DNA from: a virus
Direction: 5' to 3' (one strand)
Length of the DNA stretch: 64,000 nt
Virus record (IMG/VR): IMGVR_UViG_3300022602_002120
Coordinates: 124,802 to 188,801 of that record
Below, piece by piece: positions 8,030-31,175 of the stretch. The notes beneath the pieces are model-generated. The model searched no databases. It was not told the origin of the DNA and worked only from the letters and a program-made list of their open reading frames with translations. The first letter of the stretch is position 1. The number at the start of each line of letters is the position of its first letter. The position numbers were made by a program, and so were the translations under genes.

Positions 8030-8578
8030 TTATCTAATGAAAGTGCTACGTGACTTAGGAGTTTCCCACCAATCAATTTGTTTAACAGTAACATCTAATT
8101 TAGACATTTTTGCTTCAACTAAGTTTGCCATCCAAGCACTTAAATTTTCACTTGTAGGAACAAAGTCAACTACTAGGAATCCTTCAAAATATTCGTATTC
8201 GGGTGTGTTTGGTTCTAATCCATCTAGGTTCAAATGCCAACCTGCTACCACATCTGTGTTAGGAACCATCACAGGTACTAGTTCACGATTGTCCACAATG
8301 CTGTCATACAAAGGATCACTCTTATCAATTACAAACTGATGATCAATATATTCATTAATCCATTTCTTTAACCATTCCAAATGACGGAAGTCAGTTACCA
8401 TGCCAGTACTATCTAAGTTACCTGTATTGCTTTGTAAGAATACCTGCATCTTACCTTCATGTCCATGTAAATGACGGCAAGCACACTTTAAATCTGCCGC
8501 ATATTCGCCATTTAGTTGTTGTGTCCACACACGATGCCCGTAGCAAAACTCGAAGGTCTTATCAATTATCCATGCCAT
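8030..8578 (-). CDS. queD: 6-carboxy-5,6,7,8-tetrahydropterin synthase (T-fold)
   Basis: GHRV...CRHLHGH metal/catalytic motif, PTSENL, WWETP. Confidence 0.9.
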   Translation of the reverse strand: MAWIIDKTFEFCYGHRVWTQQLNGEYAADLKCACRHLHGHEGKMQVFLQSNTGNLDSTGMVTDFRHLEWLKKWINEYIDHQFVIDKSDPLYDSIVDNRELVPVMVPNTDVVAGWHLNLDGLEPNTPEYEYFEGFLVVDFVPTSENLSAWMANLVEAKMSKLDVTVKQIDWWETPKSRSTFIR

Positions 8579-12494: not shown

Positions 12495-12667
12495 TTTCTT
12501 CCCCAATTAATTTTTAACCAAATTCTTTCATATATATAATGCCATATCATTAGAAAAAAATGAATGGTTAAAGCCTTGCTTAAACCAATCATTAACGCTG
12601 TTATTATAGTGGCTGTAATTCTATATAATACAACTTTTGCTAATGTTCTAGAATGTGAATCGCTCAT
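12491..12667 (-). CDS. DUF2061-like small membrane protein
   Basis: SHSRTLAKVVLYR...WHYIYERIW pattern. Confidence 0.65.
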   Translation of the reverse strand: MSDSHSRTLAKVVLYRITATIITALMIGLSKALTIHFFLMIWHYIYERIWLKINWGRN

Positions 12668-13530
12668 TTGCCCCAACTATTGCCCCAAAGATCAACATGT
12701 AATCTAGGACTGTAATAATAACCACGACGCATAGCTTCATCAGCTACATTAAATTTATTACCATCATAAACGCTAACAACCCCGCCTACTGGCATAATGT
12801 ATACAACTCCTTCAAATCCTTCACTGCGATATTCTGATACAGCATCTTCAACTTCATCAAAGTCTTCTGGGGTCTCAACTACAAACTTCAAATAAGTCCG
12901 GCCTACCTGTTGATAGCTAGCTACAATTTCTGGCTTAATAGCATCTTCCCACTTCTCGCCGCTCGGACTTAGTTTAGCACTAACACTAAATGTAATTTCA
13001 CGCTGTGTGATACTTGGAATACCTACCCAGTTTTGTAAGTATTCCACAAAGTCTGGATGTAGCTCTTGAGTACCGTTAGTTTCGAATGTGATGTTTTTCA
13101 AATCACGCATTTCAATTGCTTCTAACAGCTCTGGATATACTTTTTGCCAACCCAATAATGGCTCGCCACCTGTGATAACAAGATGTACATCATTGCCATT
13201 GTCTTGAGCCCAGCGACCATTTGGAGTTAGGGCTAACATCCGTTCAACGACCTTAGATGTTTCTTGGGTTGGACTTAAACTTTTAAACTTAGGATGCCAT
13301 GACGCATAGCTGTCACAGCCTGTGTTGACTAAAGGCAAGTCTTCGTATTTGTTATATAACTCAACAGTTTTAGCAACTTCGTCAGCTTCCGTTGAACATT
13401 CACCTCTAGGCATACCAAATGATGAGCAAGTGAAATTACATCCAAAAGTTCTTAGAAATACGCTAGGTACACCAACAAATCTACCCTCGCCTTGAGCACT
13501 ATAAAATATTTCACTTACTTTTAGTTTCAT
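12664..13530 (-). CDS. queE: 7-carboxy-7-deazaguanine synthase (radical SAM)
   Basis: SEIFYSAQGEG, FLRTFGCNFTC, VITGGEP, ETNGT, SAKL, PRLHVDLWG. Confidence 0.9.
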   Translation of the reverse strand: MKLKVSEIFYSAQGEGRFVGVPSVFLRTFGCNFTCSSFGMPRGECSTEADEVAKTVELYNKYEDLPLVNTGCDSYASWHPKFKSLSPTQETSKVVERMLALTPNGRWAQDNGNDVHLVITGGEPLLGWQKVYPELLEAIEMRDLKNITFETNGTQELHPDFVEYLQNWVGIPSITQREITFSVSAKLSPSGEKWEDAIKPEIVASYQQVGRTYLKFVVETPEDFDEVEDAVSEYRSEGFEGVVYIMPVGGVVSVYDGNKFNVADEAMRRGYYYSPRLHVDLWGNSWGK

Positions 13531-13873: not shown

Positions 13874-14401
13874 TTAACATTCCCAAGGGTAGACAATCCA
13901 AACGTCTCGTTCTGCTTTGTTAATTTCTGTTCCACAATAGTTAACCTTTCTACTAAACTCACTACTCAAATTATCAATACACACCGCAAAGCGCACATTG
14001 TTACCCCAAACAGTTTCCCACCATGGATCAGTTGGAAAACATGAACTTTGCCAATCTTGAATGATCCAATCTAAGGTACTACCTGTATCGTTAATATCAT
14101 CAACGATTAATATATTTTTTTTGTTTTTTGGTAACCATTCACCATCTGGTTGCGGATTATAACCAAACGCATCTTCACTCATCCATAGGTTGCTTTCTGT
14201 ATTGGCATGATCACGTAGTTTAACTTCTAAGGTGTGCATAGGAATGTCTAACATATTACTCATAATAACTGCTGGCACTAGTCCGCCGCGAGTTAGGCCT
14301 ACAATGTAATCAGGACGCCAATTGTCCTTGTACATCTGTAGTGCGATTTTAGTTACCCATTCTTGTATTTGGGCATAACTATAGTATACTTTTTCAGTCA
14401 T
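13874..14401 (-). CDS. type I phosphoribosyltransferase (xanthine/guanine PRT-like)
   Basis: IVGLTRGGLVPA, LIVDDINDTGST PRPP loop, YPWE C-terminus. Confidence 0.88.
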   Translation of the reverse strand: MTEKVYYSYAQIQEWVTKIALQMYKDNWRPDYIVGLTRGGLVPAVIMSNMLDIPMHTLEVKLRDHANTESNLWMSEDAFGYNPQPDGEWLPKNKKNILIVDDINDTGSTLDWIIQDWQSSCFPTDPWWETVWGNNVRFAVCIDNLSSEFSRKVNYCGTEINKAERDVWIVYPWEC

Positions 14402-15572: not shown

Positions 15573-15808
15573 TATTTCTTTTCCTTTATATCTCTAAGTG
15601 TATTAGCGCGATGACGCCAAAATTTAACATCTTCTAACAGACTTTCGCTTAAATTGCGATAACGAACAAGATCTTTACGTACTTCTTCATCTATTTGTTC
15701 GTAGGCCTTTTGGCGATCCTTGGCCTTACGATCATTGTAGATGTTAAGTCCAAAAAATATTCCAAATACCAGTCCTACACCAAACCATACTACGTCAGCG
15801 CCTATCAT
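15572..15808 (-). CDS. membrane-anchored hypothetical protein
   Basis: N-terminal TM helix then coiled segment. Confidence 0.7.
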   Translation of the reverse strand: MIGADVVWFGVGLVFGIFFGLNIYNDRKAKDRQKAYEQIDEEVRKDLVRYRNLSESLLEDVKFWRHRANTLRDIKEKK

Positions 15809-16515
15809 CTTGGAGCAAACTCCTGTTGAAGTTTAATGTTGTCAAAGAATTCTTTCTTAGTATTTGGATCGTCCTTAAACGCACCTGTAAGTACAGTTGT
15901 CTGCGTTAAACTGCTATGTGCCATAATACCACGATTCTCACAACAACCATGGGTGGCTTGTATGTATACTGCTACGTTATCTGATCCAGTCGCCTTAGCA
16001 ATTTCTCTCGTGATATCATTTGCAAGCTCTTCTTGTAAAGTACCACGGCGAGCACACCATTGAGCAATTCTAGTGTATTTAGATAGACCGATAAGTTTGT
16101 TAGCGGCAATAATTCCAATGTAAGCGACTCCTGCGACAGGCTGATGGTGGTGTGAGCACATACTACGTAACTCGCTACGAACCACAAGCATACCTTCGTA
16201 TCTATCCGCGCTATCATTTGGAAAAGCTGTTGCGTCTGGTGCTGGTTCATATCTGCCTGCCATAATTTCATTAAAGTACATTTTAGCCAATCTGCGTGCT
16301 GTGCCGTGACTGTTAGGATCTGTTTCGCGATCAATTAACAGCGTATCTAACACTTGTTCAAAAGCTAGAGTTGCTTCGTCGATTAGGAGTTTTTTACTTT
16401 CTTCTGTGATGTATTCTGAGATGTTATCACCTGCCCAGAAACGTTTGTTGTCTTTCTTTAAGTTAGTACGAATGATTTCGCTAACAGGTTTTATAGGACT
16501 GTAGTTTGTTACCAT
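15805..16515 (-). CDS. folE: GTP cyclohydrolase I
   Basis: TARRLAKMY, SMCSHHH, GLSKYTR, LQEEL, HGC..NRG motifs. Confidence 0.95.
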   Translation of the reverse strand: MVTNYSPIKPVSEIIRTNLKKDNKRFWAGDNISEYITEESKKLLIDEATLAFEQVLDTLLIDRETDPNSHGTARRLAKMYFNEIMAGRYEPAPDATAFPNDSADRYEGMLVVRSELRSMCSHHHQPVAGVAYIGIIAANKLIGLSKYTRIAQWCARRGTLQEELANDITREIAKATGSDNVAVYIQATHGCCENRGIMAHSSLTQTTVLTGAFKDDPNTKKEFFDNIKLQQEFAPR

Positions 16516-18871: not shown

Positions 18872-19449
18872 TTAATAATAATTTTACGTAGATCCGGATA
18901 CTCTTTGTATTTAGGTTCTTGATCTGCAAATGGTAATTTTTCTAGGGCCTTAACAGCTTCTTCTATAGTTGGACGATAGTGATACCCGACTTCGAAAATC
19001 TTTTGATCTTGCCAAGGTAATATATTCAAATCACGCCCGTCGCTACGTTGACGTATTAGTTTTTGATATGCTTGAGTATCATCTAATAGAATAGCGCCTC
19101 CTCGACCTATGTCCAGGGGTTTATCATAGCCGAAGCTTAAACACTGCATCTGTCCTGAGCGATACATGCCCATTCGAAGTAGACGTGCGCTATCCCAAAT
19201 ACGTGTACCTTTTAGTTGGTATTCACCAGTCCATGTTTCATCTAGTAGATCATAGCTAATATCTAGCTTGTGTAAGGTCATGGGCACGCTCAGATATGTA
19301 TAAGCAGTGAGTTGGCAATGATGAATATGATCATAGCGTAGGCATAGCTCTAAGGCATGGGTACAGCAATCAGTCATGACTACATAAGGTGCGCCAGTAA
19401 GCTGACCTAATGCCTGTTCAAACTTGTATATTGGATCAAATGCGTTCAT
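18868..19449 (-). CDS. DegT/DnrJ/EryC1/StrS-like PLP sugar aminotransferase (short form)
   Basis: FE..L...TG, CTHALEL, WDSA, SFGYDKP..GRGG; much shorter than canonical family members. Confidence 0.75.
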   Translation of the reverse strand: MNAFDPIYKFEQALGQLTGAPYVVMTDCCTHALELCLRYDHIHHCQLTAYTYLSVPMTLHKLDISYDLLDETWTGEYQLKGTRIWDSARLLRMGMYRSGQMQCLSFGYDKPLDIGRGGAILLDDTQAYQKLIRQRSDGRDLNILPWQDQKIFEVGYHYRPTIEEAVKALEKLPFADQEPKYKEYPDLRKIIIK

Positions 19450-20099
19450 ACCCAATGTTTTTTTACCTGTATTAATTCTAAATTATTGCTTGGTTTTTGT
19501 CTACTAGTAAACAACAACAATGATGGATCTATAATAGGATCATCTAATAGTTCGTTGTGTCGCCATTCGATGAAGTGTTTGCTAGTATAATCATTGATTG
19601 TATATGGAGTTACTCTGTCAGATATATACACCTGATCTCCAAATCCTCTGGGCCCTGGTGTCCAATACTGTTGAACTATTTCATCTTTATTAGTAATGTA
19701 TTCATCAAATAAGTAACTATAGTCGCCATTCCAAAACATAACACTACTATTAATTTTATTATTTGGTTCTCTAACCATTAAGAATTGATCTTGAGGCAAC
19801 AATAATATATCATCGGTGATGTTCTTGCAGATTACTATATCTAGGTCTAGATATAAGGTTGGCCCTTGCAAAATATCTTTACGAAATAATTCTATTTTAT
19901 TCCAAAAAATATCAGAATTAGTTATTAACGGTATTGTATTGTAATCTGTAGATATGTTTGATAAACACACAAACTCAAATGGTATGTTTAAATTTTTACT
20001 AATTCCGCGATATAATTTGTCAACCCATTCACTTGAATATTTCGGACCGCGTGGATTATCTTGAACATTTAATACACATGCTACATTAATCTTGTTCAC
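19446..20099 (-). CDS. GT-A glycosyltransferase (GT8-like)
   Basis: WNKIELF, LYLDLD DxD, NSSVMFW, GDQ. Confidence 0.75.
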   Translation of the reverse strand: MNKINVACVLNVQDNPRGPKYSSEWVDKLYRGISKNLNIPFEFVCLSNISTDYNTIPLITNSDIFWNKIELFRKDILQGPTLYLDLDIVICKNITDDILLLPQDQFLMVREPNNKINSSVMFWNGDYSYLFDEYITNKDEIVQQYWTPGPRGFGDQVYISDRVTPYTINDYTSKHFIEWRHNELLDDPIIDPSLLLFTSRQKPSNNLELIQVKKHWV

Positions 20100-20445
20100 T
20101 TAAGTGATCTCTTTTGACTTCTCTGACCGGACATTCAAGTAGTTCTGCTATTTTATTCTTTACACCAATTCGTTTGTTGTTCCAATCTCTGATTAAAATG
20201 GCTCTACGTCCAATTTCTGCCAGATCTAATTCTAATTCTTTACCAGATTTTAGTTCTTTCTCTAGTTCCCAAATAGTATTATGAATTTCTTTTAACTCAT
20301 CAAATAAAGTTCGAACAGAATTTAACTCGGATTGACTTACTTGATCTTTATACCATTTTAATTCATCTGAATTGGATTGGGTGCGTTCCCATTTTACTTC
20401 AGCAATAGCTAATCTATCAAAGAACTCAATCACTGGGAATTTCAT
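20086..20445 (-). CDS. DUF6165-like helical protein
   Basis: FDRLAIAEVK...IWELE...N.KR..KNKI pattern. Confidence 0.55.
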   Translation of the reverse strand: MKFPVIEFFDRLAIAEVKWERTQSNSDELKWYKDQVSQSELNSVRTLFDELKEIHNTIWELEKELKSGKELELDLAEIGRRAILIRDWNNKRIGVKNKIAELLECPVREVKRDHLSEQD

Positions 20446-21469
20446 ATGTATTATCCTTAATTAATTGTTTTAATGCTTGTACTAAATCGTTTTTATGTGG
20501 ATCAAACTTCCCAGAGTAAAAATTATCAATATTACGTTGTCTGCGATTGTGTAAAGCTATATTAATACTTAGTAGATCCTTTGATAATAGATCTTTAATC
20601 AGAGTGTGTAATTTGTTAAACCTAGTTTCAAAATCTAACTCGCAATCGTAGTAACTATGATCAATCACATCGTCATATACATCAACCCCTTGCTTGCGCA
20701 ACCGATCTATATAAAATGGATTTGCTAGGGCTACAAACATTTGTCCTGATAAAATAGGTTTCCAGATCTTTTCGGTTTGATGTATACGATTGATAATCGT
20801 AGTTTCGGGTACAATATTAATGTATGCATCAGTAAACGCAGGATGACTTACATCTGTGCCGACATTGACCCAATTTGGCAATCCTTCGGACTCTGCAATT
20901 TGATGCCTAGTGGGTAAAGTTACATTAACAATTTCCCACCATTGTTTATAGCAATCATCTAATTGATAATCTTCGTTAATCCGATGATCTAGATTACCCC
21001 CAAAAATTTGATTTATAACTTTATTAGAAGAATATTCTTGCATTTTAAAATAATTTAAAACTCTATGAGGTCTAGGATTTCCGTGCAGACAAGATATACT
21101 ATAAGATTTTTGATCAACAAGCGGTGGAATAACTACTTTTTCTATAGGGGTTAATGTATAATTAAACCCGTGTACAACCTTCTCGTGATACCAATAAGGG
21201 TGGTGTATTAGTTTAGGTCTTGTTAGATGATTTTCATAGATGTGTGTTAATATTAAAAAATTTACATTAGCACGTTCTAATTCATCATACAAAGAGCCTA
21301 TAAAATTATCAGTGCCCCAATTTTCTAAGCAACAATTAATAAGCACAGCGGATTCTTTTGCCAGGGAATTAATTTTATTGATATCCCATCGCCATTGTTC
21401 ATTGAGTAATGTCAGTGGATTTTCGATATATGTTACAGGCAGCCGTTGGGCTAATAGGTACATAAACAT
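20426..21469 (-). CDS. glycosyltransferase-like hypothetical protein
   Basis: 347 aa; INIVPET...TEKIWKP...F motif typical of phage GT-B-like proteins. Confidence 0.5.
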   Translation of the reverse strand: MFMYLLAQRLPVTYIENPLTLLNEQWRWDINKINSLAKESAVLINCCLENWGTDNFIGSLYDELERANVNFLILTHIYENHLTRPKLIHHPYWYHEKVVHGFNYTLTPIEKVVIPPLVDQKSYSISCLHGNPRPHRVLNYFKMQEYSSNKVINQIFGGNLDHRINEDYQLDDCYKQWWEIVNVTLPTRHQIAESEGLPNWVNVGTDVSHPAFTDAYINIVPETTIINRIHQTEKIWKPILSGQMFVALANPFYIDRLRKQGVDVYDDVIDHSYYDCELDFETRFNKLHTLIKDLLSKDLLSINIALHNRRQRNIDNFYSGKFDPHKNDLVQALKQLIKDNTYEIPSD

Positions 21470-21503
21470 TATTTGATATTTTCTAAATGGGAATTTATAA
21501 ATT

Positions 21504-21533
21504 AATATAACATGATTATTTAGGCGGTGTCAA
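21504..21533 (-). repeat. promoter direct repeat copy 2
   Basis: tataacatgattatttagg...tgtcaa, near-identical to 16562-16589. Confidence 0.8.
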
Positions 21534-21573
21534 ATATTATTTGACATTTTCTGATATTCTGAAAATATAGATG

Positions 21574-22602
21574 TCATAGGTATAGTGTTTCAATTTGGGT
21601 TGGGTTATTTAAGATATTTTGTATTTCAATATTACTTTTGTTTGGTCTACAAGGTTGACAGAATGACACATTAGTTTTGTTATAAATTTCATTGTGACGA
21701 GCATTTAGCCACAGGTCTCTAAAGTCATCCTTGTCCCATGCTCCTAAAGCATATTGCGGATTACCTTTATTTTCACAGCATACGTAGATTTTACCGTCTG
21801 CACAAAATACAGGAAACTGAAACATTTGATGGCATTTTTTATAGTTTCTAGGTAGAGTCTTGTTAATATTAACCCAATGTGGTATTTGGTATTTCTTACT
21901 TAACTCTTCTAGCATTGTAAGTGTTTGCGCTGTAATAGGATGTGCTTGCCCGTTGACTATCACAGGTCTAAAGTATAATCCTCTACCTTTAACTGAGCTA
22001 ACTAGTCTGAATAAATCATCCATTGCCTGCAGATTGTCGTTTAAGGGATTAATCAAACACTTAAAATCAACATTGACTCCGATCTCTATTAGATTCTTTG
22101 CATTGTCGATAACACGGCTGAATAAACTTTTAGCTGTTAAACTATGTCTGATTTCTTCATAAAGATCTTCGGTACCTGCATCAATATCAATGCCAATCCA
22201 CGCAATTTTTTTTAGTTTTTCTATTACAATACTGTCTAATAACTTGTCTAAGTGACTACCGTTCGATGTAATAGCAGTTAAGAATCCTAGATCTATTGTG
22301 TATTCGATTACATTTTCAAACCCTGTTAGTATACTAGGTTCACCGCCACCTGGATAGGTGATTGTGTGGGTAGTGCCGTAACTGTTTGGGCTATGTGTTC
22401 GCCACCCTGCAAGTTTATCTAATAGTATAATGTATTCGTTATATTTCTTTTGGACCGGTTGCTCTTTTCTAAACTCAGCTGAATTGCAATAATAACAATC
22501 TTGATTACATACATTAGTTAGATCAATATCCACTTGCGCAGGTAATAAGATCATCGAATCTTTGTTTTTCATCCAATGCACTACTTCAGCATATTGATAC
22601 AT
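21574..22602 (-). CDS. radical SAM / SPASM-domain protein
   Basis: CNQDCYYC, GGGEP, C-terminal C...CC...CQPC auxiliary-cluster cysteines. Confidence 0.88.
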   Translation of the reverse strand: MYQYAEVVHWMKNKDSMILLPAQVDIDLTNVCNQDCYYCNSAEFRKEQPVQKKYNEYIILLDKLAGWRTHSPNSYGTTHTITYPGGGEPSILTGFENVIEYTIDLGFLTAITSNGSHLDKLLDSIVIEKLKKIAWIGIDIDAGTEDLYEEIRHSLTAKSLFSRVIDNAKNLIEIGVNVDFKCLINPLNDNLQAMDDLFRLVSSVKGRGLYFRPVIVNGQAHPITAQTLTMLEELSKKYQIPHWVNINKTLPRNYKKCHQMFQFPVFCADGKIYVCCENKGNPQYALGAWDKDDFRDLWLNARHNEIYNKTNVSFCQPCRPNKSNIEIQNILNNPTQIETLYL

Positions 22603-22606
22603 TATA

Positions 22607-23680
22607 TTATTTAATGTTTTCTAATAGATTGGTAGCACTAAAGAAATAGTGATGTAAGCCTCGAGCCTGTTGCGGAACATATCTAGCATATTCATCATAG
22701 TTAGACATAAACTCACGAATGTGTGCTATCAGCTCTTGCTTGTGATGTAGGTAATTGCTGTAACTTTCTGTCCACTCGCTAGGATAACGCCATATCTCAG
22801 CATACATTTCCGTGTATGACAAACGATCAGGAACCATTGGAATAGCATCAGTTAAGGCACCTTCATACATGCTAATACCTAGAGTTTCTTGTAGGTTAGC
22901 ACTAAACACCATCTTAGCTTCGCCTAGTAAGGTATGATAACCTTCTTTACTAAGTCCTAGCTCTTGACAAACAATCCATTCATATTCGGGCATTGCTTGA
23001 GCAAGATCTTTAAAGATTTCTACCTGCTTCTCTGGTGCTATACGATGCGGGAATAAGATTAGGTCACGCTTTGCGGTCTTATAAGGCGTAATAGTCTCTG
23101 GCATATATTCCATAGGCCAACCTGTGCGTACAACTTTACCTGAACGTTTTTCTATAGTCTTCCAAAACTCAGTTGCTGAGTCCTTGCCAAATGTTTTAGC
23201 AAACAAATCAATATGAAAGTCCGTGGCAAAGTAGTTGTGATCAATAGCATGATAGAAACTTTGTTCAGCATGTCTAACCCAAGCCGCATCACCAATAAGG
23301 CGTCCTAAGAAGTCCTGTGGATCATAACTGCCAGCGTGCCAAAGTGCGTGTATAGTTACTTTAATACCCAGTAGTTCAGACATATACTTAAGATTAATAA
23401 TCCCAGGGTGCCAAGCATCAGTAAATATGAAGTGGTCCCCCGACTTAACCCTGCCCTCAGTGAAGAGTCTTCCCATTCGCTCCACTTGACTAGCCTTGTA
23501 GATATTAGTACCACCAAAATTAAGGAAAGCACCAGGAGTTGTGGCACTAGGTATATCAGTCGGGCCCGCGATAACATAGACTTCATGGCCATGCTCCTCA
23601 AGTAACTTAGGTACATGAGTCTTCCACTGACCCGTGTACCTAGTTTCAACTGCTTCTAGATCAACTAGATATACAGTCAT
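22607..23680 (-). CDS. GT-B (GT4-like, retaining) glycosyltransferase
   Basis: FPHRIAPEKQ donor-binding segment and ETLGISMYE (EX7E) motif. Confidence 0.82.
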   Translation of the reverse strand: MTVYLVDLEAVETRYTGQWKTHVPKLLEEHGHEVYVIAGPTDIPSATTPGAFLNFGGTNIYKASQVERMGRLFTEGRVKSGDHFIFTDAWHPGIINLKYMSELLGIKVTIHALWHAGSYDPQDFLGRLIGDAAWVRHAEQSFYHAIDHNYFATDFHIDLFAKTFGKDSATEFWKTIEKRSGKVVRTGWPMEYMPETITPYKTAKRDLILFPHRIAPEKQVEIFKDLAQAMPEYEWIVCQELGLSKEGYHTLLGEAKMVFSANLQETLGISMYEGALTDAIPMVPDRLSYTEMYAEIWRYPSEWTESYSNYLHHKQELIAHIREFMSNYDEYARYVPQQARGLHHYFFSATNLLENIK

Positions 23681-23919
23681 TAGCGTGGATTCCGACCTTG
23701 ATAACCGCTAGGCTGGCCGTTGCGTTGTTGCCATTGTTGGCGTTTCTTGCGGCGTTCTTGCCACTCACGATACTCTACTGACTTGTAAAGATCAGCTTCG
23801 TCGAACTTGATCATACGGAAACGACAGTAGTTCAACCATGCGTCCAAGTCGTTATAGATTTTTGTTACTTCTGGGCTCATACGAAGATACTTCTTAAGCC
23901 ATACTGGTTGTGATGCCAC
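23680..23919 (-). CDS. hypothetical protein
   Basis: 79 aa, Gln/Arg-rich C-terminus, coupled to GT gene. Confidence 0.7.
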   Translation of the reverse strand: MASQPVWLKKYLRMSPEVTKIYNDLDAWLNYCRFRMIKFDEADLYKSVEYREWQERRKKRQQWQQRNGQPSGYQGRNPR

Positions 23920-23930
23920 GATAAATCTCC

Positions 23931-24380
23931 TTAAATAGTGACAGTTTGGTAAGGTTGGGTTTGGTTATAAAAGATGGTACACCCGTTTTCACCATCTTCA
24001 CTTACTTCAATGTGAACATCGCGATTGGGATACTTTTGTGCAATCTGCACGTATAGATCATCTGCGATCATCTCGCATGATCTGTAATTTAGTTCTAATA
24101 CGGAACCTTTACCCACATACAGGCTTTCAAGCCATCGTTTGAACTGGATGAACTCGATGTCCCTGTCATTGTGCCACACATCAATTGACACCCTGAAATG
24201 AAAAATGTGGCGGTGAGGATTAGCAAGGAACGATACATCATATTCATCTCCAGTTTTAAGTAATGGGTTAACTGCGGCATCTGGGTAGCAATGAATGCCT
24301 TCCTTCTGGAAAGTAACCCAAATCTTTCTCTTAGCTGCAATTAGAATTCTATCTACTAAGTCACGTTCTGCTTGTATCAT
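23931..24380 (-). CDS. QueD-paralog T-fold protein, DpdL-like
   Basis: LANPHRHIF matches the LxxxHRHxF signature I recall for DpdL; DRDIEF, SCEMIA, V.EDGENG. Confidence 0.7.
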   Translation of the reverse strand: MIQAERDLVDRILIAAKRKIWVTFQKEGIHCYPDAAVNPLLKTGDEYDVSFLANPHRHIFHFRVSIDVWHNDRDIEFIQFKRWLESLYVGKGSVLELNYRSCEMIADDLYVQIAQKYPNRDVHIEVSEDGENGCTIFYNQTQPYQTVTI

Positions 24381-24970
24381 CGGTCATACTCGAAAAGATT
24401 TTGAAAAGTTGATTTACTCATTGATATTACAGTATCCATTCGCCCACTGTCAAGCCTGAAAGCATAACTATTTGAATTATTTACTTGTTCAAGATAGCCA
24501 AAAAATCCTTTGTGCGCACAAGTTTTAATTTTATTATTTTTTAATAACTGTGATCTGCTATGTTCGTAGCTGAGTTTAAAGTGTTCTTGAATATGATCTT
24601 GATCAAAATCAATAATATCGATAGACTCGATAACATTGATTTCAGGCTTATAACCATTTGTAGTAAATCGTAACTGTTTACATATTTTTTTATAAAACGT
24701 AGTGTCAGTCCATTCAGGGGTATTTAAGATATCTTGAATAGTCATCGAGCCTGCTGTCTGCGGACTTGTAGAACGTCGATCTCTTGATTTAACTTCTAGT
24801 TCTAGCTCAGGAATATCCACGGATCCTGTCTTATCAACAGGGACTCCGATAGAAATTAATAAGTCTTCAATTGCTCGCCCAGCTAACCCTTCAAACTTAG
24901 TAGGCAAATGTTTACCTATAAGTTGTTTTCTTAGCATGTCTAAAAATATATTTTCAGCATTGGATATCAT
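24377..24970 (-). CDS. MutH/Sau3AI-like PD-(D/E)xK endonuclease
   Basis: GRAIE...VD...ELEVKS catalytic motif, then W.DT.FYKK segment. Confidence 0.6.
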   Translation of the reverse strand: MISNAENIFLDMLRKQLIGKHLPTKFEGLAGRAIEDLLISIGVPVDKTGSVDIPELELEVKSRDRRSTSPQTAGSMTIQDILNTPEWTDTTFYKKICKQLRFTTNGYKPEINVIESIDIIDFDQDHIQEHFKLSYEHSRSQLLKNNKIKTCAHKGFFGYLEQVNNSNSYAFRLDSGRMDTVISMSKSTFQNLFEYDR

Positions 24971-25494
24971 TTGATAATTTCATCCTTTCCGTACTGATCC
25001 CAGTCAGTAAAAGTTTCTCTAGTAGTTAATGAATGTAAGGTATGACACCAAACTCCTGGATTACTATATTCAAAGTCCAAGTCGTCTAGCTTAATTGTAG
25101 CATTATATCCAAGCTGTGTCAAGTGGGGAATTTTAACTGAAATTTGTGGAATAAATTTACGGTGTCCAATTACAGGCATTTCAAGAACACCTTGTACAAC
25201 ACTGACATCAAAGTCTAAAGTACACCAATAGCCTGCATCTAAACACTGATCGATCATACGTTCCCATGGACGCCATTGATCAGCATCATCTGTAGCTAAC
25301 TGTGGAAAACTTTGATTAGCACCAAAGTAGATGTGTGTACAACTATTTGCCACAGCAAGAGTTTTGATTGCAATGAAATCTTGTACACCTACTACAAACA
25401 ATGTTTTCATATCATAGGCAGGAGTCTTTTCAATTTCTACACCTGTGAAGAATTTAACGTTTTCTTTAGTGCCTGTACTATATTCGCGTTTCAT
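24967..25494 (-). CDS. unknown protein in dpdA cluster
   Basis: Start reassigned to MKREYSTG (ATGA overlap); TLFVVG, HIYFGAN, KLDD.DF..SNPGVW motifs; no family recognised. Confidence 0.75.
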   Translation of the reverse strand: MKREYSTGTKENVKFFTGVEIEKTPAYDMKTLFVVGVQDFIAIKTLAVANSCTHIYFGANQSFPQLATDDADQWRPWERMIDQCLDAGYWCTLDFDVSVVQGVLEMPVIGHRKFIPQISVKIPHLTQLGYNATIKLDDLDFEYSNPGVWCHTLHSLTTRETFTDWDQYGKDEIIK

Positions 25495-25685
25495 TCTACA
25501 CGGCCATTTTCTTCTGACCACAGCGCATCGTTGCGAGCAAGTTGCTCTGGGGTTAATAAACATTCTATTAGAATAAAACGTTTACTCATATATGGAAGTT
25601 TATCTAATTCAGTGGCTAGGGCTACTCTGGCCTGTAGATTAGCCAGACGTTTGCTTTCTAAATATTCTTTATATAATTTAATCAT
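25491..25685 (-). CDS. hypothetical protein
   Basis: 64 aa coupled ORF. Confidence 0.6.
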   Translation of the reverse strand: MIKLYKEYLESKRLANLQARVALATELDKLPYMSKRFILIECLLTPEQLARNDALWSEENGRVE

Positions 25686-25869
25686 TTAATGAATCCAATT
25701 TTTGTTTAGTGTCTTCAAGTTGACGACGTACATGGGCTTTTTCTTGTTTCATTTTGCTCAAACCTGCGTCATCCATATAATGAGTATACCCATCTTTTAT
25801 CTTTTTGTCAAGTGTTTTGTGAGTTTCTTCTAAGTGTTTAATATGGTGTTCTAAACTAAGTTTGTCCAT
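25678..25869 (-). CDS. DUF465/YdcH-like coiled-coil protein
   Basis: L...H..LD.KI...LK..K....D pattern. Confidence 0.65.
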   Translation of the reverse strand: MDKLSLEHHIKHLEETHKTLDKKIKDGYTHYMDDAGLSKMKQEKAHVRRQLEDTKQKLDSLND

Positions 25870-25870
25870 G

Positions 25871-27448
25871 TTATTCTCCTAACCCTTCTTCTAAGTTATC
25901 TAAATTAGCTTCATCAAACCCACTGTCGTCTACATGATGCTCTTCTTCGTCTACTTCAAACAAGTTATTAAACATAGTACTAGCATTAACAGTTTTCTTA
26001 CCTGTAGCCCCGCGAGTACCAATAATGCTCATCCAGAACTTACTGTGATCTTCAATAATCTGTTCAGCACTACTACGATCTGGCGCAGCAAAGATTTGAT
26101 CTACAACGTCACGGAAATAAACACGCTCAAATGTTTCCTGTACTAGCATGTTAGGCACAACGCCTTGGTCATACTGTCTATTAGCTTCTTGTACTGAATT
26201 AATATGACTCCAAACATTATGACCCATTTGAATAGCATAACTAAAACTATCCCAGCTGGTCTTACCCTCTTTACCAATCTTGTTCAAATCACCTGGGGCA
26301 TACTTACAAACATCGTTGATCTGTATACGATTACTAATAGGACTATCTGTAAAGTTGGGGAATATACCATCTTGTAGAACGGCGTCACTGAACTTGCGTG
26401 TGTCTTTGGCATACTTCTTATTGTCTACACTAGGTACCATACGATATACCCATTTCTTACGATCTTCAATTTCAGTTTGAATATAGATCTGTCCGTTAGC
26501 TGACGCTAGGAATGGACTAGCACAGTCAAAGCTAATAGTAAAATTAGGATTAACATACTTACGAACACTACGTTGAATGTCTGTTAATAAACAAGCCCAC
26601 TCTAGTTTACTTGTACCCAAAAAGTGCATCCAATCATGAACGCCTTCTTGTAGCAGTCCATCATAACGAATAGCCACTAGACGTTTAAGCACTAGATGTA
26701 CATCACACATGTTCTGTCCACCCATTGCCCAACCATTAAAGTGACGACCTGGATATTGCGTAGGATCACAGTACTTTTTCATGCGATCATACCAATCATC
26801 TGCGTCTGCGTGATTTTCGCCTTGTAGAACGTTCAAGAACTTACAGTTACCATTACGATTATTAATAAACCAATCATTGTTAATGTAAGTACCTTCAACT
26901 GCTTCGTCGTAGGTATTGATACCAGTGGCCTTACGTCCTGCTGGACTACGAGCCACCCAAGCTGGGATATCTAAACACATACCATAGTCCATGTATGCGT
27001 CCATCCAAGTAAGCACTAGTTCACGTTTCTTTTGTGCTTTGGGACAGTTTGGATCTTTCCAATCACCTTCCCAAACACCCTTACCAATTTGGAAACCACC
27101 ACTATCACCTAAGATAAACGATTTAGTACGATCTCTATTTCTGACCATGTCTTCTTTGGGACTGTGCTTGTTTACATCTAGTTCAGCGTGGCCTGCTGAA
27201 TATAAACTCCAGTGATAGGGAAAGTAAGCTTCAGTTGGATTAAGCCAGTTAAGGCCTTCCATACCGTTTTCAAAGTTTGCTGGAATACGGGTTGACTCTA
27301 CATACAAGTTACCGTTAGCATCCGGAAAACGTTGTTTTCCTACGTAAGTGGCATAGAATCCACTCAATGCTGGAAGAAAAACGGCGTATTGGCTTTGACC
27401 ATCTGTGCCTAGTTGTTTTTCTGTAAGATTGTCTCTTGGTAGTGTCAT
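25871..27448 (-). CDS. dpdA: TGT-fold DNA 7-deazaguanine transglycosylase (DpdA-like)
   Basis: DSGGFQ, LDIP, VLQG, AMGG, HFLG, SFDC equivalents of TGT catalytic motifs; no CxCxxC zinc site; alternative start 27466. Confidence 0.78.
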   Translation of the reverse strand: MTLPRDNLTEKQLGTDGQSQYAVFLPALSGFYATYVGKQRFPDANGNLYVESTRIPANFENGMEGLNWLNPTEAYFPYHWSLYSAGHAELDVNKHSPKEDMVRNRDRTKSFILGDSGGFQIGKGVWEGDWKDPNCPKAQKKRELVLTWMDAYMDYGMCLDIPAWVARSPAGRKATGINTYDEAVEGTYINNDWFINNRNGNCKFLNVLQGENHADADDWYDRMKKYCDPTQYPGRHFNGWAMGGQNMCDVHLVLKRLVAIRYDGLLQEGVHDWMHFLGTSKLEWACLLTDIQRSVRKYVNPNFTISFDCASPFLASANGQIYIQTEIEDRKKWVYRMVPSVDNKKYAKDTRKFSDAVLQDGIFPNFTDSPISNRIQINDVCKYAPGDLNKIGKEGKTSWDSFSYAIQMGHNVWSHINSVQEANRQYDQGVVPNMLVQETFERVYFRDVVDQIFAAPDRSSAEQIIEDHSKFWMSIIGTRGATGKKTVNASTMFNNLFEVDEEEHHVDDSGFDEANLDNLEEGLGE

Positions 27449-27452
27449 TGAT

Positions 27453-28154
27453 TTATTTTGTTCCATTGCGTTTTTGTTCCCATAATTTTTTTCTTGCCTC
27501 AGACATTTTACGTTTAGTTTCTTCTGACATGTCTCTGCCTTTTAACTTAGCACTTATTTTTGCTTTTTGCTCATCAGTGTTCGCTCTACCTTTGTGTGCT
27601 TCACTTAGTTTAGCACGATGTTCTTCTGTAAAGCAACGACCTTTGAGTGATGTTGCGTATTGCTGTACTTTTTCGCTTGTTTCTTTAGACTGACCTTTAT
27701 TCCACGGTATATTGCCCTTACCAGAGTCACTTAACTTTCTTTTGTGTTCTTCTGATTTAGGCTTTCCCTTAAGGGCAGCAGAAATTTTATCACCGTGTTC
27801 TTTTTTAATACCCTTATTTGCTTTACTAATTTTCTCTCTTCCTGCGTCAGTTAAAAAGGAGCCAACTTGCGTATCCTTATTCCACGGAATAATTCCTGCT
27901 GTACCATCTCCACCATCTGTTCTATTATGTAATGTGCCTGTGCCTAAATCTTTTCTACCATACCAGCGTATAAGTCTACGTTCTAAAGCAAATGCCCCAA
28001 GTTCTGATAAATTGGATTCTAATATAACAATCCTATTAAGATCTTTAGGAACAATAACAGAATGTGATTTTTGCCACGCTCTGTCATCTTTACCTTTCCC
28101 AATATAATACGGAGTTAAATCTTTAGTTCTCAAATAAGCATATACATAAAACAT
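27453..28154 (-). mobile_element. free-standing GIY-YIG-type homing endonuclease with NUMOD3 repeats
   Basis: YVYAY...YYIGKG...R, E..LI..YG, YN.T.GGDG, repeated SEEHKRKLS modules; late TAAATA at 28174-28179. Confidence 0.85.
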
Positions 28155-28543: not shown

Positions 28544-28874
28544 TACCTTCTTCCCTGGTAAGAATATCCATGACTTGAAACTTCTCATAAGCATCTTTAA
28601 GTCCAGGATGTTTTTCCATACGCTCTTTAAGAGTAGCTTCTTCTCGCTGTTTTTCTATAGCCCAACGGATAGCATTGTCGGCATCCCAGCTTAGACCAAT
28701 AGTCACACCCTGACTCATCAGTTGCCAACTACTACCGTCATAGACTTCTACTGATTGGTTAGCGGGATTGTATCGTAACTGCCCAACATTCAGCATACCA
28801 TTATTGTAAATGTTTGGAGGATAGTTTCCTGTAACGGTTACGTAGGCACTATTTGTTGCTAGGTTTTTAATCAT
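28527..28874 (-). CDS. hypothetical protein
   Basis: 115 aa; C-terminal HPGLKDAYEKF motif. Confidence 0.75.
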   Translation of the reverse strand: MIKNLATNSAYVTVTGNYPPNIYNNGMLNVGQLRYNPANQSVEVYDGSSWQLMSQGVTIGLSWDADNAIRWAIEKQREEATLKERMEKHPGLKDAYEKFQVMDILTREEGNVAGS

Positions 28875-29448
28875 AAAATTTCACACTCTTATATAACTTA
28901 TAGTCTTCGGCAAAATACTCCTCTAATCTTGCTCGATATAGAGGATTTTGATTGATTTCTTCATTAAAACGAACAATAAATTCACGTTTACTACCTGTAC
29001 TAGTGTTATACTCTAAGGCAATCTGAATATTAGTACGATAGTTAAATTGTTTAACCCAACGCTCTAAATTGTCACGTAGGCGTTCATCTACACGTAAAAA
29101 AGTTGCTTTACTTAACTCAACCCCTTGTATAAAGTATACTTGGTGTTCGGTATGATCGTCAAATGTAATTTGCTCAAGTGCTTGATCTACAGTCAGCATT
29201 ATTCCAGTGTTATAACAATATTCTGCTATTCCACTAATCCAACGTTCGATCGGTTCACGTAGCGCAATTAGATATTCATCAGCAGGCACTAGTGTTTCGC
29301 TATGTCGCCACATACCATAACAGCCAATTAAACAGCCTTTGATAAAACTACTAGCATTTTTAGGAATATGTACATAGGTTAGGTGATGAGTATCATCTAC
29401 CCAACATTCACCTAGTCTATGTCCTAAATGTGCCCACTTACCGTACAT
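28867..29448 (-). CDS. sulfotransferase family protein
   Basis: HIPKNASS PAPS-binding loop, LREPIERWISG, H...Q, Y.EDYKL. Confidence 0.8.
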   Translation of the reverse strand: MYGKWAHLGHRLGECWVDDTHHLTYVHIPKNASSFIKGCLIGCYGMWRHSETLVPADEYLIALREPIERWISGIAEYCYNTGIMLTVDQALEQITFDDHTEHQVYFIQGVELSKATFLRVDERLRDNLERWVKQFNYRTNIQIALEYNTSTGSKREFIVRFNEEINQNPLYRARLEEYFAEDYKLYKSVKFYD

Positions 29449-30179
29449 TACTTGCTTTGTGCTGGTAGTAAGTAGTTGTATGTTGCTAGACCTGTGTTTA
29501 CAGTGATCTGCGCAACACCTTCGTCGCTGATACTAAATTTCTTATCGCCTGCTAGATTAAGAATAGCAATTACAGCTGCAACAGGCCATGACCATGCTTT
29601 GGTTAATTTACCACTAACACCTGCTTGGAACACAAAGTTACCAGCATGACTACTGTGATCGCCAAAGAAGAATTTTAAGTCAGTACCTTCTGTTTTAGCT
29701 GTAAAATTTGTTTCTTCACTATTAGCACTTGACATAAACTTCAAACGTTGAATACTTGCTACTGTAGGTTCAAATTCTACGTTCCAGTTAACAGTTTTCA
29801 TTTTAACTGTTTTAAGTTTGTCACTAACAATTTCTTGACTCATAAAACGATAGTCGTTCTTAAAGTCACCCGCGGCATTTTCAAAATGCAGGCCCACTGA
29901 AACAGCTTCGCCATTGCGGTCTTGTGTGGTTAATGAAATCTTAGCATTTTCTTTGTATTCTGGAATGTTAAGAATTGTGTTTAGTTTGCCTAGATTAGGC
30001 ATACCAAATGTGCCAATAAACTCAGCCACAGGTCCATTTAATTTAGCCTGTACAATAACTGAACGATCTTCAGCTAGGGCTTCGATGTTTGTTTCTTTGT
30101 CGGTGCCTGTTACTTTAACTAAATCAATATTGCCTAGGCCATAAGTGTTTTTAACGATGTCTAATAGATGGTCTCTCAT
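29448..30179 (-). CDS. DNA polymerase sliding clamp (gp45/PCNA-like)
   Basis: 243 aa beta-rich protein ending in Y.LPAQ, two genes downstream of DNA polymerase B. Confidence 0.7.
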   Translation of the reverse strand: MRDHLLDIVKNTYGLGNIDLVKVTGTDKETNIEALAEDRSVIVQAKLNGPVAEFIGTFGMPNLGKLNTILNIPEYKENAKISLTTQDRNGEAVSVGLHFENAAGDFKNDYRFMSQEIVSDKLKTVKMKTVNWNVEFEPTVASIQRLKFMSSANSEETNFTAKTEGTDLKFFFGDHSSHAGNFVFQAGVSGKLTKAWSWPVAAVIAILNLAGDKKFSISDEGVAQITVNTGLATYNYLLPAQSK

Positions 30180-30245: not shown

Positions 30246-31175
30246 TTATTTTTGTTTTATTTCTCCTAATACAGGATGTCGTTTAGCTGTGGCTAGTGTA
30301 CCGGGTTTCTTAACAGCCAACCAACTGATATATTTTACAGATTGGTCAACATTAGATAAATCGTAATCATATGCTAGTTCATAGCCTAGTTCTTGACATG
30401 CAACTAATAAATGACGTTTAGGAACATAGCTCATACCACCAGTTTCTGCTAATTCACAACCTTCGAGTTGATCACAATTATTATAACTGAATAGGAATAT
30501 ACCCCCTGGTCGCAATAATTCTAACATTTTTTTTAGATAATCTTTAATACAGGTCATGCTGGTATAATTAAATAACATCCAACTAAAAATAAACCCAAAT
30601 TGATTTTGTGGTAACTGTACTACACTGTCGGTGATAATATATTTTTTTAAGCGACCATAATAAACATCGTTAAATTGTCTGGCTATTGTTTCTACATTAT
30701 CTGCATTAAAATCACATAGGTATAACGGATCGCTGGCAACTAGATCATTGGTTAAACGCATACTTGGTGCTGTGCATCCAAACTGTAGTGCAGGATAATA
30801 AAAGTTAGAGTGTTGGCGAATATTTACAGTAATAGCTTCGATTACTTCGTCGCTAATTTGAAAATCAATACGGTGATACTGTTTAAAGAATTCAAGACTA
30901 ACATCAGGAAATTGCGTATTAGCTAGCAGGTCTATAGCATCGTTGATCTTATTAAGAATCTCAGGTAATTGTTCTTTAAGATTAACTGTGTACGGTATTA
31001 ATTTTTCATATTCTGCCTGCACCGACCCTAATATATCATGTCCAACATTATGCGGATGAGTTACTCCTAATTGATGTAGTAATTGGCATACATCTGAGAT
31101 AGCAGGCGTTAGATTGATTTGACTCAATGTCGAAATAACATCGTTACGATATCTTATTAAATCACTGACTAGCAT
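30246..31175 (-). CDS. class I SAM-dependent methyltransferase-like protein
   Basis: LQFGC, FGFIFS, LLRPGGIFLFSY motifs; coiled N-terminus. Confidence 0.7.
   Translation of the reverse strand: MLVSDLIRYRNDVISTLSQINLTPAISDVCQLLHQLGVTHPHNVGHDILGSVQAEYEKLIPYTVNLKEQLPEILNKINDAIDLLANTQFPDVSLEFFKQYHRIDFQISDEVIEAITVNIRQHSNFYYPALQFGCTAPSMRLTNDLVASDPLYLCDFNADNVETIARQFNDVYYGRLKKYIITDSVVQLPQNQFGFIFSWMLFNYTSMTCIKDYLKKMLELLRPGGIFLFSYNNCDQLEGCELAETGGMSYVPKRHLLVACQELGYELAYDYDLSNVDQSVKYISWLAVKKPGTLATAKRHPVLGEIKQK

Follow-up and report, generated by a model that had tools for sequence, protein, structure and literature searches.

The DpdL/DpdA3 system of Cellulophaga phage phiST yields 2'-deoxy-7-deazaguanosine (dDG) in DNA by a route that runs through FolE, QueD, QueE, DpdL and DpdA and dispenses with QueC (NAR 2023, PMC10516641). 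DpdL, the proposed decarboxylase of 7-carboxy-7-deazaguanine (CDG), is defined by the motif LxxxHRHxF and is predicted to act on the free base (PMC10516641). In the Pseudomonas jumbo phage PA5oct, the DNA resists cutting at G-containing restriction sites, yet nucleases that recognize hypermodified bases do cut it (PMC12191111). The bacterial Dpd restriction-modification systems (dpdA-K), which make dPreQ0 and dADG, likewise depend on a TGT-superfamily DNA transglycosylase and lie in integrase-bearing islands beside nucleases. In these systems, the bacterial DpdA is assisted by the ATPase DpdB.

Sugar decoration of DNA bases has been described for pyrimidines. The T4 alpha- and beta-glycosyltransferases (GTs), which act on 5hmC, and the enzymes of HY126 and RB69, which arabinosylate 5-hydroxycytosine (PMC13326640), are GT-B enzymes that adjoin base-modification genes and decorate the modified base after replication. 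The sole known sugar-decorated 7-deazaguanines in nucleic acid are galactosyl- and mannosyl-queuosine in vertebrate tRNA (PMC10690763). Our literature search turned up no paper describing a glycosylated 7-deazaguanine in DNA, in agreement with what a sequence-only reading of the present locus had supposed. Here, we describe a locus of an uncultured jumbo phage that represents a known 7-deazaguanine system with a new, proposed GT extension.

Results and discussion

A conserved gene run next to the polymerase and clamp genes

We analyzed a 64,000-nt window (positions 124,802 to 188,801) of the viral record IMGVR_UViG_3300022602_002120, which spans 189 kb and is ~53% complete; coordinates below are those of the window. 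Eight minus-strand ORFs occupy positions 27466-22607, spaced by 0-12 nt or joined by short overlaps, with the genes for PolB (31175-33832) and the sliding clamp (29448-30179) upstream. In the direction of coding, the order is DpdA, s63, s64, unk175, a 197-aa ORF, DpdL, s79 and GT. The tightly packed run downstream of the polymerase and clamp genes that the sequence-only reading had reported is thus present with every listed ORF on the minus strand. The DpdA end given there, 27448, is a second ATG, and the ORF extends to 27466.

Conservation of the individual genes was counted in 80 related viral contigs or loci from IMG/VR. In essentially all of these loci that extend far enough, the order DpdA-unk175-DpdL-s79-GT is the same. 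The arrangement is therefore not due to chance, and these five genes are the core of the module. PA5oct resembles this layout in carrying contiguous genes for DpdA (gp0316, 33-36% identity), GT (gp0317, 43%) and DpdL (gp0318, 56%), which follow the PolB and clamp genes; QueE and a phosphoribosyltransferase (PRTase) are encoded nearby, and QueC is missing. It differs in that the order is DpdA-GT-DpdL and that unk175 and s79 are absent. The modified G of PA5oct is supported by restriction digests (PMC12191111), whereas a modification in the present phage is predicted from its genes.

DpdL and the precursor pathway

The QueD-like T-fold protein of 149 aa encoded at 23931..24380 (-) carries the DpdL motif as L52-A-N-P-H56-R57-H58-I-F60, in place of the CxxxHGH of QueD. 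It is 54% identical to DpdL of Acidovorax phage ACP17 (E 1e-44) and 35% identical to CGPG_00067 of phiST (E 4e-10), and it matches phrog_17812 (1.4e-34). On this sequence evidence, the gene, earlier called DpdL-like, can be firmly assigned as DpdL. The likeness to phiST extends to DpdA, which is homologous at the profile level, whereas phiST lacks GT, unk175 and s79 and has a DpdA3 of 259 aa rather than 531 aa.

Genes for the steps before DpdL lie elsewhere in the window, all on the minus strand. FolE, the GTP cyclohydrolase I at the entry to the pathway (15805..16515; Pfam PF01227, E 4e-39), comes after GT in 61/80 related loci. QueD, the CPH4 synthase (8030..8578), matches Pfam PTPS (E 1e-26), has QueD as its top NCBIfam match and keeps CxxxHGH (C34-H40). 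The candidate CDG synthase is a divergent QueE-like radical SAM protein (12664..13530) whose five top NCBIfam matches are all QueE models, with E values from 4e-12 to 9e-9 that all fall under the curated cut-offs; it is homologous to the annotated QueE proteins of PA5oct, ACP17 and Phosso. A purine PRTase (13874..14401; Pfam Pribosyltran, 3.9e-14; top NCBIfam match xanthine PRTase), with a putative role in this pathway, accompanies the module in several lineages (PA5oct gp0321 and the loci L094, L099-L103 and L129).

QueC was not found in the 189-kb record, which at ~53% completeness is weak evidence by itself. Three complete genomes with the GT-DpdL pair, those of PA5oct, ACP17 and Phosso, also gave no QueC. 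By comparison, this DpdA family occurs in Vibrio phage 2.275.O together with QueC and QueF, and the tblastn searches returned no GT or DpdL match for that phage. No hydroxymethyl-pyrimidine route was seen in the incomplete 189-kb record, where the sole ThyA-family gene encodes a canonical thymidylate synthase (PFNIASY). In addition, the window has an island of sugar-related genes that is separate and variable.

A distant member of the DpdA family

The first gene of the run (25871..27466, -) encodes a putative DpdA-like DNA guanine transglycosylase that branches distantly within the TGT/DpdA superfamily. At 531 aa it is unusually large, roughly double the length of phiST DpdA3. Across 18 diverse members of the family, DSGGxQ (D121-Q126), D166, HxLG (H281-G284) and D314 do not vary. 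The first of these motifs reads GDSGGFQ in this protein, and D121, S122, G123, G124 and Q126 are invariant in all 18 members, those from bacterial islands included. D166 lies in an LDIP context and D314 in a SFDCASP context. The TGT nucleophile aspartate sits in an FDC-type motif, and we take D166 and D314 to be the probable counterparts of the TGT base-recognizing and nucleophile aspartates, by the hhalign register.

In hhalign, this family aligned with a DpdA3 profile built from the ACP17, BUDD, BCSR5 and phiST sequences at 95.7% probability (E 1.1e-8, 201 columns), in a register that places GDSGGFQ on the DSGG of DpdA3. An Atlas search also gave a TGT lead (score 0.93), and one metagenomic member, L092, matches the HMMs of both families. 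HMM searches do not otherwise join the two families, which are too distant; the protein had no match to the Pfam TGT model (PF01702), and no TGT was found in the PDB by single sequence or by profile. DpdA3 and DpdA4 likewise required HHpred for their recognition (PMC10516641). PA5oct, Phosso and Vibrio phage 2.275.O have homologs within their deazaguanine clusters. The earlier dpdA label therefore stands, as that of a distant relative.

A GT4-like glycosyltransferase with conserved catalytic residues

The last gene of the run (22607..23680, -) encodes a predicted GT4-like retaining GT-B glycosyltransferase of 357 aa. The AF2 model is confident (pLDDT 93.7, pTM 0.91) and has two Rossmann-like domains that align with many GT4/GT5 enzymes at Z 20-26 over 280-320 residues. 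In the VIA search, cellular GT4 enzymes score Z 22-26 (25.8 for sucrose-phosphate synthase, 24.2 for BshA), while the known DNA glycosyltransferases score 17.6-19.1 (19.1 for the HY126 enzyme, 9iqz; 17.6 for T4 alpha-GT, 1y6f) and both rank below ~28 cellular GT4 enzymes. By Z score, the cellular enzymes are nearer matches than the two phage ones. The EX7E motif is E265-x7-E273. In 42 diverse homologs, down to 31% identity, E273 is invariant, conservation reaches at least 90% for E265 and for the predicted donor-diphosphate-binding residues R213 and K218, and the acceptor half is highly conserved. The earlier assignment as a GT-B enzyme with EX7E is borne out, and the protein is apparently an intact enzyme, with catalysis predicted from the model and the conserved residues.

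The family comprises 1156 clusters at 50% identity. The protein had no match in Pfam (Glycos_transf_1) or NCBIfam, one homolog has a faint PF00534 match, and the family profile reaches one PDB glycosyltransferase (E 4e-5).

The GT gene is linked to dpdA and dpdL in phages and bacteria

In at least 8 phage lineages that differ in polymerase, GT adjoins DpdL or sits within ~3 kb of it. The two are adjacent in PA5oct, Phosso, ACP17 and L092 and ~1-3 kb apart in BUDD, BCSR5 and L094. GT also adjoins this DpdA family in 33/34 genome loci, bacterial islands included. The co-occurrence of GT with dpdA and dpdL on which the sequence-only reading had turned is thus positive in both comparisons. Integrase-bearing islands with DpdA and GT, set beside nucleases as in the Dpd systems, occur in Magnetospirillum and Ochrobactrum, and some islands are minimal, with little besides these two genes. 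In contrast with the bacterial Dpd systems, islands with this DpdA family carry GT and mostly DpdL too, and the PADLOC Dpd models matched none of DpdA, GT, DpdL, unk175 and the 197-aa ORF. Seven bacterial islands have DpdA and GT without DpdL.

Among phage records, no close GT homolog was found without DpdL. Weaker homologs without DpdL (24% identity) form the PhiXhv-12 group; in Xanthomonas phage PhiXhv-12 itself, the distant homolog lies among genes of sugar metabolism, and deazaguanine genes are missing there; one such homolog is found in Paenibacillus. The reverse case, DpdL without GT, occurs for example in phiST, whose DNA contains plain dDG, so a place for GT downstream of DpdL in the pathway fits.

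A proposed pathway and its alternatives

We propose, with about even confidence, that the run is the core of a QueC-less 7-deazaguanine DNA-replacement system extended by a GT that would glycosylate the inserted base. FolE, QueD and QueE would convert GTP to CDG, as in the known preQ0 pathway, and DpdL would convert CDG to 7-deazaguanine, the role proposed for it in the literature. Judging by its homology to DpdA3 and its conserved aspartates, the divergent DpdA would then swap guanine in the phage DNA for 7-deazaguanine after replication. The linkage and the intact catalytic residues of GT suggest that it would use a nucleotide sugar to glycosylate the deazaguanine after its insertion, most likely at the DNA level. 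The product would be a bulkier base that may block restriction, with unk175 and s79 as presumed conserved accessory parts.

The acceptor would set this enzyme apart from those of T4 and HY126, which act on pyrimidine hydroxyls, whereas 7-deazaguanine is a purine analogue without a hydroxyl group and no hydroxymethylase was seen in the incomplete record. It would also differ from queuosine, in which the sugar is carried in RNA on cyclopentenediol hydroxyls that lie beyond this pathway and is added by enzymes unrelated as far as compared. A candidate acceptor is C7, a nucleophilic carbon that decarboxylation would free and that would face the major groove. To our knowledge, the known C-glycosyltransferases are inverting GT1 enzymes rather than retaining GT4-like ones, and direct glycosylation of dDG would be unprecedented. 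Alternatively, another enzyme, for example unk175, may first create an acceptor group. Since seven bacterial islands have DpdA and GT without DpdL, a base that has not been decarboxylated could also serve as acceptor.

An unlikely alternative to glycosylation in the polymer is that GT acts before insertion, on free 7-deazaguanine or on an intermediate (pterin or CDG), and that the large DpdA inserts the decorated base. A pool of free base would exist if DpdL works on the free base as predicted (PMC10516641). The GT is acidic (pI 5.8) and has only two conserved basic residues in its acceptor half (R14 and K62), which from sequence resembles a small-molecule site more than a DNA groove. BGluT (5zer), a pterin glucosyltransferase, matches the model at Z 20.8 and has the highest identity of all listed structural matches (16%), and the doubled size of this DpdA family also fits this reading. 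However, BGluT is unremarkable among ~30 GT4 matches, and ACP17, BUDD and BCSR5 pair GT with ordinary DpdA3-type enzymes. Moreover, we know of no sugar decoration of a nucleic-acid base that is added other than on the polymer: those of T4 5hmC, of 5-hydroxycytosine by arabinosylation (PMC13326640) and of tRNA queuosine are all made there.

It is similarly improbable that the DNA ends as plain dDG, with GT merely co-inherited and acting on a protein, a pterin cofactor or an envelope component. Full dDG replacement is attained by phiST without GT (PMC10516641), the 24%-identity homologs of PhiXhv-12 and Paenibacillus lie outside a deazaguanine context, and the same window has its separate sugar-gene island. 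Against this stand the adjacency to DpdA or DpdL in at least 8 phage lineages and in 33/34 genome loci, minimal islands among them, and the highly conserved acceptor half of GT, which points to one specific shared acceptor. That GT transfers no sugar and is a structural or DNA-handling partner of DpdA, comparable to DpdB, would accord with a linkage to DpdA that is tighter than that to any biosynthetic gene; we consider this very improbable, since the EX7E glutamates and the R/K diphosphate residues are invariant or nearly so across the 42 homologs, as under catalytic selection.

From the tight association of GT with deazaguanine genes in this phage, in many others and in bacterial islands, we predict a sugar-bearing purine in DNA; if this is true, it would be the first case of a genome with a sugar-decorated purine. 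Glycosylation of the inserted base may be general to these modules, although we hold this broader reading at somewhat below even confidence: the DNA of the cultured phages PA5oct, ACP17, Phosso, BUDD and BCSR5, of related phages and of the bacterial islands would contain glycosylated 7-deazaguanine, possibly a C-glycoside, formed when a GT4-like enzyme acts at the C7 freed by DpdL, and the island module would be the modification half of a restriction-modification-like system.

Small and accessory proteins of the run

The conserved alpha/beta protein unk175 (24967..25494, -; length of 175 aa from an internal Met) is present in 73/80 related loci, and in ACP17 the gene immediately upstream of DpdA3 encodes a homolog (BLAST E 8e-18, HMM 1.7e-44). 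It had no match in Pfam, PHROG, NCBIfam or PADLOC; its AF2 model (pLDDT 84) gave a best Z of 7.1 in structural searches and no Foldseek match past 1e-3. Of its earlier description as an unknown enzyme, the place in the cluster holds, as that of a core gene, while "enzyme" was a guess, given a fold without a clear relative. The basic, clade-specific s79 (23680..23919, -; 79 aa, pI 9.9) is found in 74/80 loci, always between DpdL and GT, and was not found in PA5oct, Phosso, ACP17 or the bacterial islands. The semi-conserved s63 (25678..25869, -; 63 aa), probably a coiled coil with sub-threshold Pfam matches, occurs in 34/80 loci, always between DpdA and unk175. The poorly conserved s64 (25491..25685, -; 64 aa) overlaps both of its neighbors, occurs in 4/80 loci and is possibly not a gene.

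The 197-aa ORF (24377..24970, -) had been counted in the cluster as a nuclease. It matched no family, solved structure or phage record, and a D..ExExK-like string can be discerned only by eye. Since this ORF and a neighboring radical SAM gene each occur in just 2/80 related loci, both are passengers and not parts of the system.

A packed gene run beside the polymerase and clamp genes

The 64-kb window forms the right-hand end of a viral record of 188.8 kb with a CheckV completeness of ~53%, and nearly all of the window's genes lie on the minus strand. Within 27466-22607 (minus strand), downstream of genes for a family-B DNA polymerase (31175-33832) and a sliding clamp (29448-30179), ORFs of 531, 63, 64, 198 (or 175), 197, 149, 79 and 357 aa follow one another with gaps of 0-12 nt or short overlaps, as the sequence-only reading had correctly described. 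The alternative lengths belong to unk175 (24967-25494), a protein of 198 aa, or of 175 aa if read from an internal Met, the start also taken by the Atlas record. Megablast of the 6-kb region against phage records gave no match at the DNA level, and a promoter and terminator scan returned no signal above shuffled controls.

DpdL and a distant DpdA within a pathway without QueC

Judged by its sequence, the QueD-like 149-aa protein (23931-24380, minus strand) is DpdL. It carries L52-x3-H56-R57-H58-x-F60, matching the LxxxHRHxF signature that replaces the CxxxHGH of QueD in the proposed decarboxylase of 7-carboxy-7-deazaguanine (CDG; PMC10516641). It shares 54% identity with the Acidovorax phage ACP17 DpdL that was cloned in the 2023 NAR paper (PMC10516641), and 35% with the family's founding member in Cellulophaga phage phiST. 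The motif and the match to the ACP17 protein thus bear out the earlier label "DpdL-like".

The 531-aa protein (25871-27466, minus strand) had been called DpdA, and we read it as a distant branch of that family. Scans of Pfam (TGT included), PHROG, NCBIfam and PADLOC gave no match, and neither single-sequence nor profile searches of the PDB retrieved a TGT. Among the methods tried, only profile-profile comparison with DpdA3 placed the protein: its family profile matched that of DpdA3 (ACP17, BUDD, BCSR5 and phiST) with 95.7% probability (E 1e-8, 201 columns) and in the right register. The DSGGxQ, D166, HxLG and D314 (FDC-type) motifs are invariant among 18 diverse homologs, and four related phages with complete genomes encode no further TGT-like gene. 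Our placement in a distant branch rests on the invariant motifs, the profile match and the lack of a rival gene in those genomes. HMM searches leave the 531-aa family and DpdA3 unjoined, and one metagenomic member matches both models.

The window also encodes FolE (15805-16515), a QueD that keeps CxxxHGH (8030-8578) and a divergent QueE (12664-13530), adjoined by genes for a SAM synthetase and a purine phosphoribosyltransferase (13874-14401, minus strand; best model, xanthine PRTase). The latter gene accompanies deazaguanine genes in several lineages (PA5oct gp0321, L094, L099-L103 and L129) and could either salvage DpdA-released guanine into the GTP pool or take part in 7-deaza nucleotide synthesis. 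QueC is absent from the record, which is ~53% complete; more telling, it is also missing in PA5oct, ACP17 and Phosso, whose genomes are complete and contain the same pair of glycosyltransferase (GT) and DpdL. Vibrio phage 2.275.O encodes a DpdA of the window's family together with QueC and QueF, and tblastn searches with GT and DpdL found no match in it. Taken together, the locus is very probably a 7-deazaguanine replacement system without QueC, a reading that we consider well supported. The closest characterised system is the FolE/QueD/QueE/DpdL/DpdA3 route of phiST to 2'-deoxy-7-deazaguanosine (dDG), to which the window locus adds the GT, unk175 and the 79-aa protein s79, and from which it differs in its much larger and more distant DpdA.

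A predicted GT-B glycosyltransferase linked to DpdL and DpdA

The 357-aa GT (22607-23680, minus strand) has a predicted GT-B fold (pLDDT 93.7), and its model resembles retaining GT4/GT5 enzymes with Z scores of 20-26 (sucrose-phosphate synthase, BshA, glycogen synthase, PglA and PimA). Its EX7E motif is E265-x7-E273; across 42 homologs with identities as low as 31%, both glutamates and the residues R213 and K218 vary little or not at all. These features confirm the earlier assignment to the EX7E-bearing GT-B enzymes, and the conserved residues fit an active sugar-nucleotide transferase. The model matched T4 alpha-glucosyltransferase (Z 17.6) and the glycosyltransferase of phage HY126 (Z 19.1), whose DNA carries arabinosylated 5-hydroxycytosine (PMC13326640), no better than it matched cellular enzymes. 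No NTP-transferase or UDP-sugar dehydrogenase for sugar activation was found in the record.

Co-occurrence of the GT with dpdA and dpdL, proposed earlier as a check, proved positive, for DpdL in at least eight phage lineages and for the window's DpdA family in 33 of 34 genome loci. DpdA, GT and DpdL are found in that order in the PA5oct group, and in Sinorhizobium phage Phosso DpdL and GT follow PolB and the clamp. The order is unk175 homolog-DpdA3-GT-DpdL-QueE in ACP17 and GT-DpdA3-DpdL-QueE in Xanthomonas phages BUDD and X1 (seen in BUDD; from tblastn coordinates only for X1), while in Burkholderia phage BCSR5 the GT lies ~3 kb from DpdL. Two metagenomic lineages carry DpdL-GT followed by DpdA (L092) and, with a PolA-type polymerase, DpdL and GT separated by two genes (L094).

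The genome scan covered one genome per prokaryotic species and yielded 34 loci; in 33 of them the GT stands beside a DpdA of the window's family, and DpdL is additionally present in 25. The loci include several phage contigs binned into MAGs, and others are chromosomal islands with integrases. The island of Magnetospirillum aberrantis (L116, 8324-15365) encodes an integrase, a CoiA-like nuclease, GT, DpdL, DpdA and QueD, and that of Ochrobactrum sp. MYb379 (L109, 1373-12828) an integrase, Mrr, GmrSD, DpdA, a Vut_1/YhhQ-like transporter and GT, without DpdL. Both look like restriction-modification-type islands built on a GT-DpdA pair. L101, L103, L106 and other genome loci are contigs of the source-phage clade, one of 335 kb, in MAGs labelled Neomarinimicrobiota, Methanobacteriota, Pacearchaeota, Legionellales and Fischerella; these are most likely mis-binned phage DNA.

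DpdL occurs without the GT in phiST, Rhizobium phage RHph_I1_18, Aeromonas phage Ahp1 and others, and the DNA of phiST is proven to contain plain dDG (PMC10516641). Outside a deazaguanine context, we found distant GT homologs in Xanthomonas phage PhiXhv-12 (24% identity) and Paenibacillus (29%). Among phage records, the close GT family is nested within the DpdL/DpdA set, as would be expected of a GT whose acceptor is the product of the pathway.

Core and passenger genes

We mapped the window proteins onto 80 IMG/VR loci, each carrying a GT homolog that is 66-87% identical to the window's. The common order is PolB, (methyltransferase-like), clamp, (sulfotransferase-like), (115 aa), DpdA, (s63), unk175, DpdL, s79, GT, (short DegT-like), FolE. 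The core consists of GT (80/80), DpdL (74/80), s79 (23680-23919, minus strand; 74/80), unk175 (73/80) and DpdA (67/80); loci without a core-gene match were largely short or had the match close to a contig end. Of the two tiny minus-strand ORFs behind dpdA, s63 (25678-25869) and s64 (25491-25685), the latter is poorly conserved (4/80).

The passenger genes are inserts outside the system: a NUMOD3 homing endonuclease directly upstream of dpdA (27453-28154, minus strand; 3/80), a 347-aa ORF (3/80), the 197-aa ORF (24377-24970, minus strand; 2/80) and a radical SAM/SPASM gene adjoining the GT (21574-22602, minus strand; 2/80). The gaps between DpdA, unk175 and DpdL differ by up to ~3 kb among relatives; this module is therefore an insert hot spot. 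The 197-aa ORF had been taken for a nuclease of the system, a claim that we abandon in favour of a passenger given its rarity and the lack of library support for the label: searches of all libraries and of phage records returned no match. The ORF sits between unk175 and DpdL and contains a D..ExExK-like string. The record shows no shortage of GATC (observed/expected 1.15), which is uninformative either way on this ORF; the most depleted 4-mer palindromes are TGCA (0.63) and CGCG (0.66). The radical SAM gene, which scores best against prokaryotic viperins (PADLOC pVip, E 6e-21), was rejected as a system part because it occurs in so few loci.

Other neighbors recur more often. A half-length DegT/DnrJ-like protein of 195 aa (18868-19455, minus strand) keeps the SFxxxK lysine motif, and its gene directly follows the GT in 37/80 loci; in the window, a poorly conserved inserted block (19446-22602) intervenes. 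Between PolB/clamp and DpdA lie a sulfotransferase-like gene (28867-29448, minus strand; 23/80) and a methyltransferase-like gene (30246-31175, minus strand; 32/80).

Neither unk175 nor s79 matched Pfam, PHROG, NCBIfam or PADLOC, and Foldseek returned nothing for unk175 at E <= 1e-3. The best VIA match of unk175 was STAS-like and covered half the protein (Z 7.1), and three QueE structures gave the longest alignments (Z 5.5-6.2). The idea of a stripped-down QueE was dropped after hhalign against QueE profiles gave 0.1% probability, and Atlas feature matches to glycoside-hydrolase fragments fell below trust level. Searches for unk175 homologs came up empty in phiST, PA5oct, Phosso, BUDD, BCSR5 and the bacterial islands.

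The candidate acceptor of the sugar

Gene linkage and the intact catalytic residues suggest that the GT would add a sugar to the deazaguanine base. dDG has no hydroxyl group, and C7, freed by decarboxylation, is nucleophilic and faces the major groove. To our knowledge, the C-glycosyltransferases described so far are inverting GT1 enzymes and none is GT4-like. An acceptor group may have to be created beforehand, and unk175 would be the only conserved candidate for that role.

The proposed logic resembles that of T4 and HY126, in which glycosylation follows an earlier modification of the base, although the window locus does not clearly share the defining features of those families. As far as the sequenced half of the genome shows, a T4-type target is unlikely, since the thymidylate synthase homolog (G000:C1:119835-120686, outside the window) is canonical (PFNIASY; Pfam E 1.5e-108) and no hydroxymethyl-pyrimidine route is visible in the record. 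Alternatively, the GT may work on the free base before its insertion into DNA. The enzyme is acidic, with just two conserved basic residues in its strongly conserved acceptor half, which argues against action on DNA and keeps this alternative alive. Because some GT islands have no DpdL, the acceptor also need not be the decarboxylated base, and this too weighs against action on DNA.

The sugar decorations of DNA known to us are all on pyrimidines, and the 7-deazaguanine DNA bases that we know of bear small substituents only. Full-text literature searches found no description of glycosylated 7-deazaguanine in DNA, in agreement with the sequence-only reading. A sugar on a deazapurine, if real, would thus add a new class to the known DNA hypermodifications. 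In ACP17, dpdL and dpdA are flanked by a GT and a unk175 homolog, and the proposed modification would account for the failure of these two genes to yield dDG in E. coli. The DNA of the therapeutic phage PA5oct resists cleavage at restriction sites that contain G, its genome encodes QueE and PTPS, and the phage is targeted by nucleases sensing hypermodified bases (2025 preprint, PMC12191111); the proposed modification would identify its modified G and explain the attack by such sensors. It would also bear on restriction evasion, nanopore and polymerase behaviour, and new DNA-labelling enzymes. The GT family comprises 1156 clusters at 50% identity and the source phage has thousands of environmental relatives, so that the modification, if real, would be common in nature; several phages already in culture carry the module.
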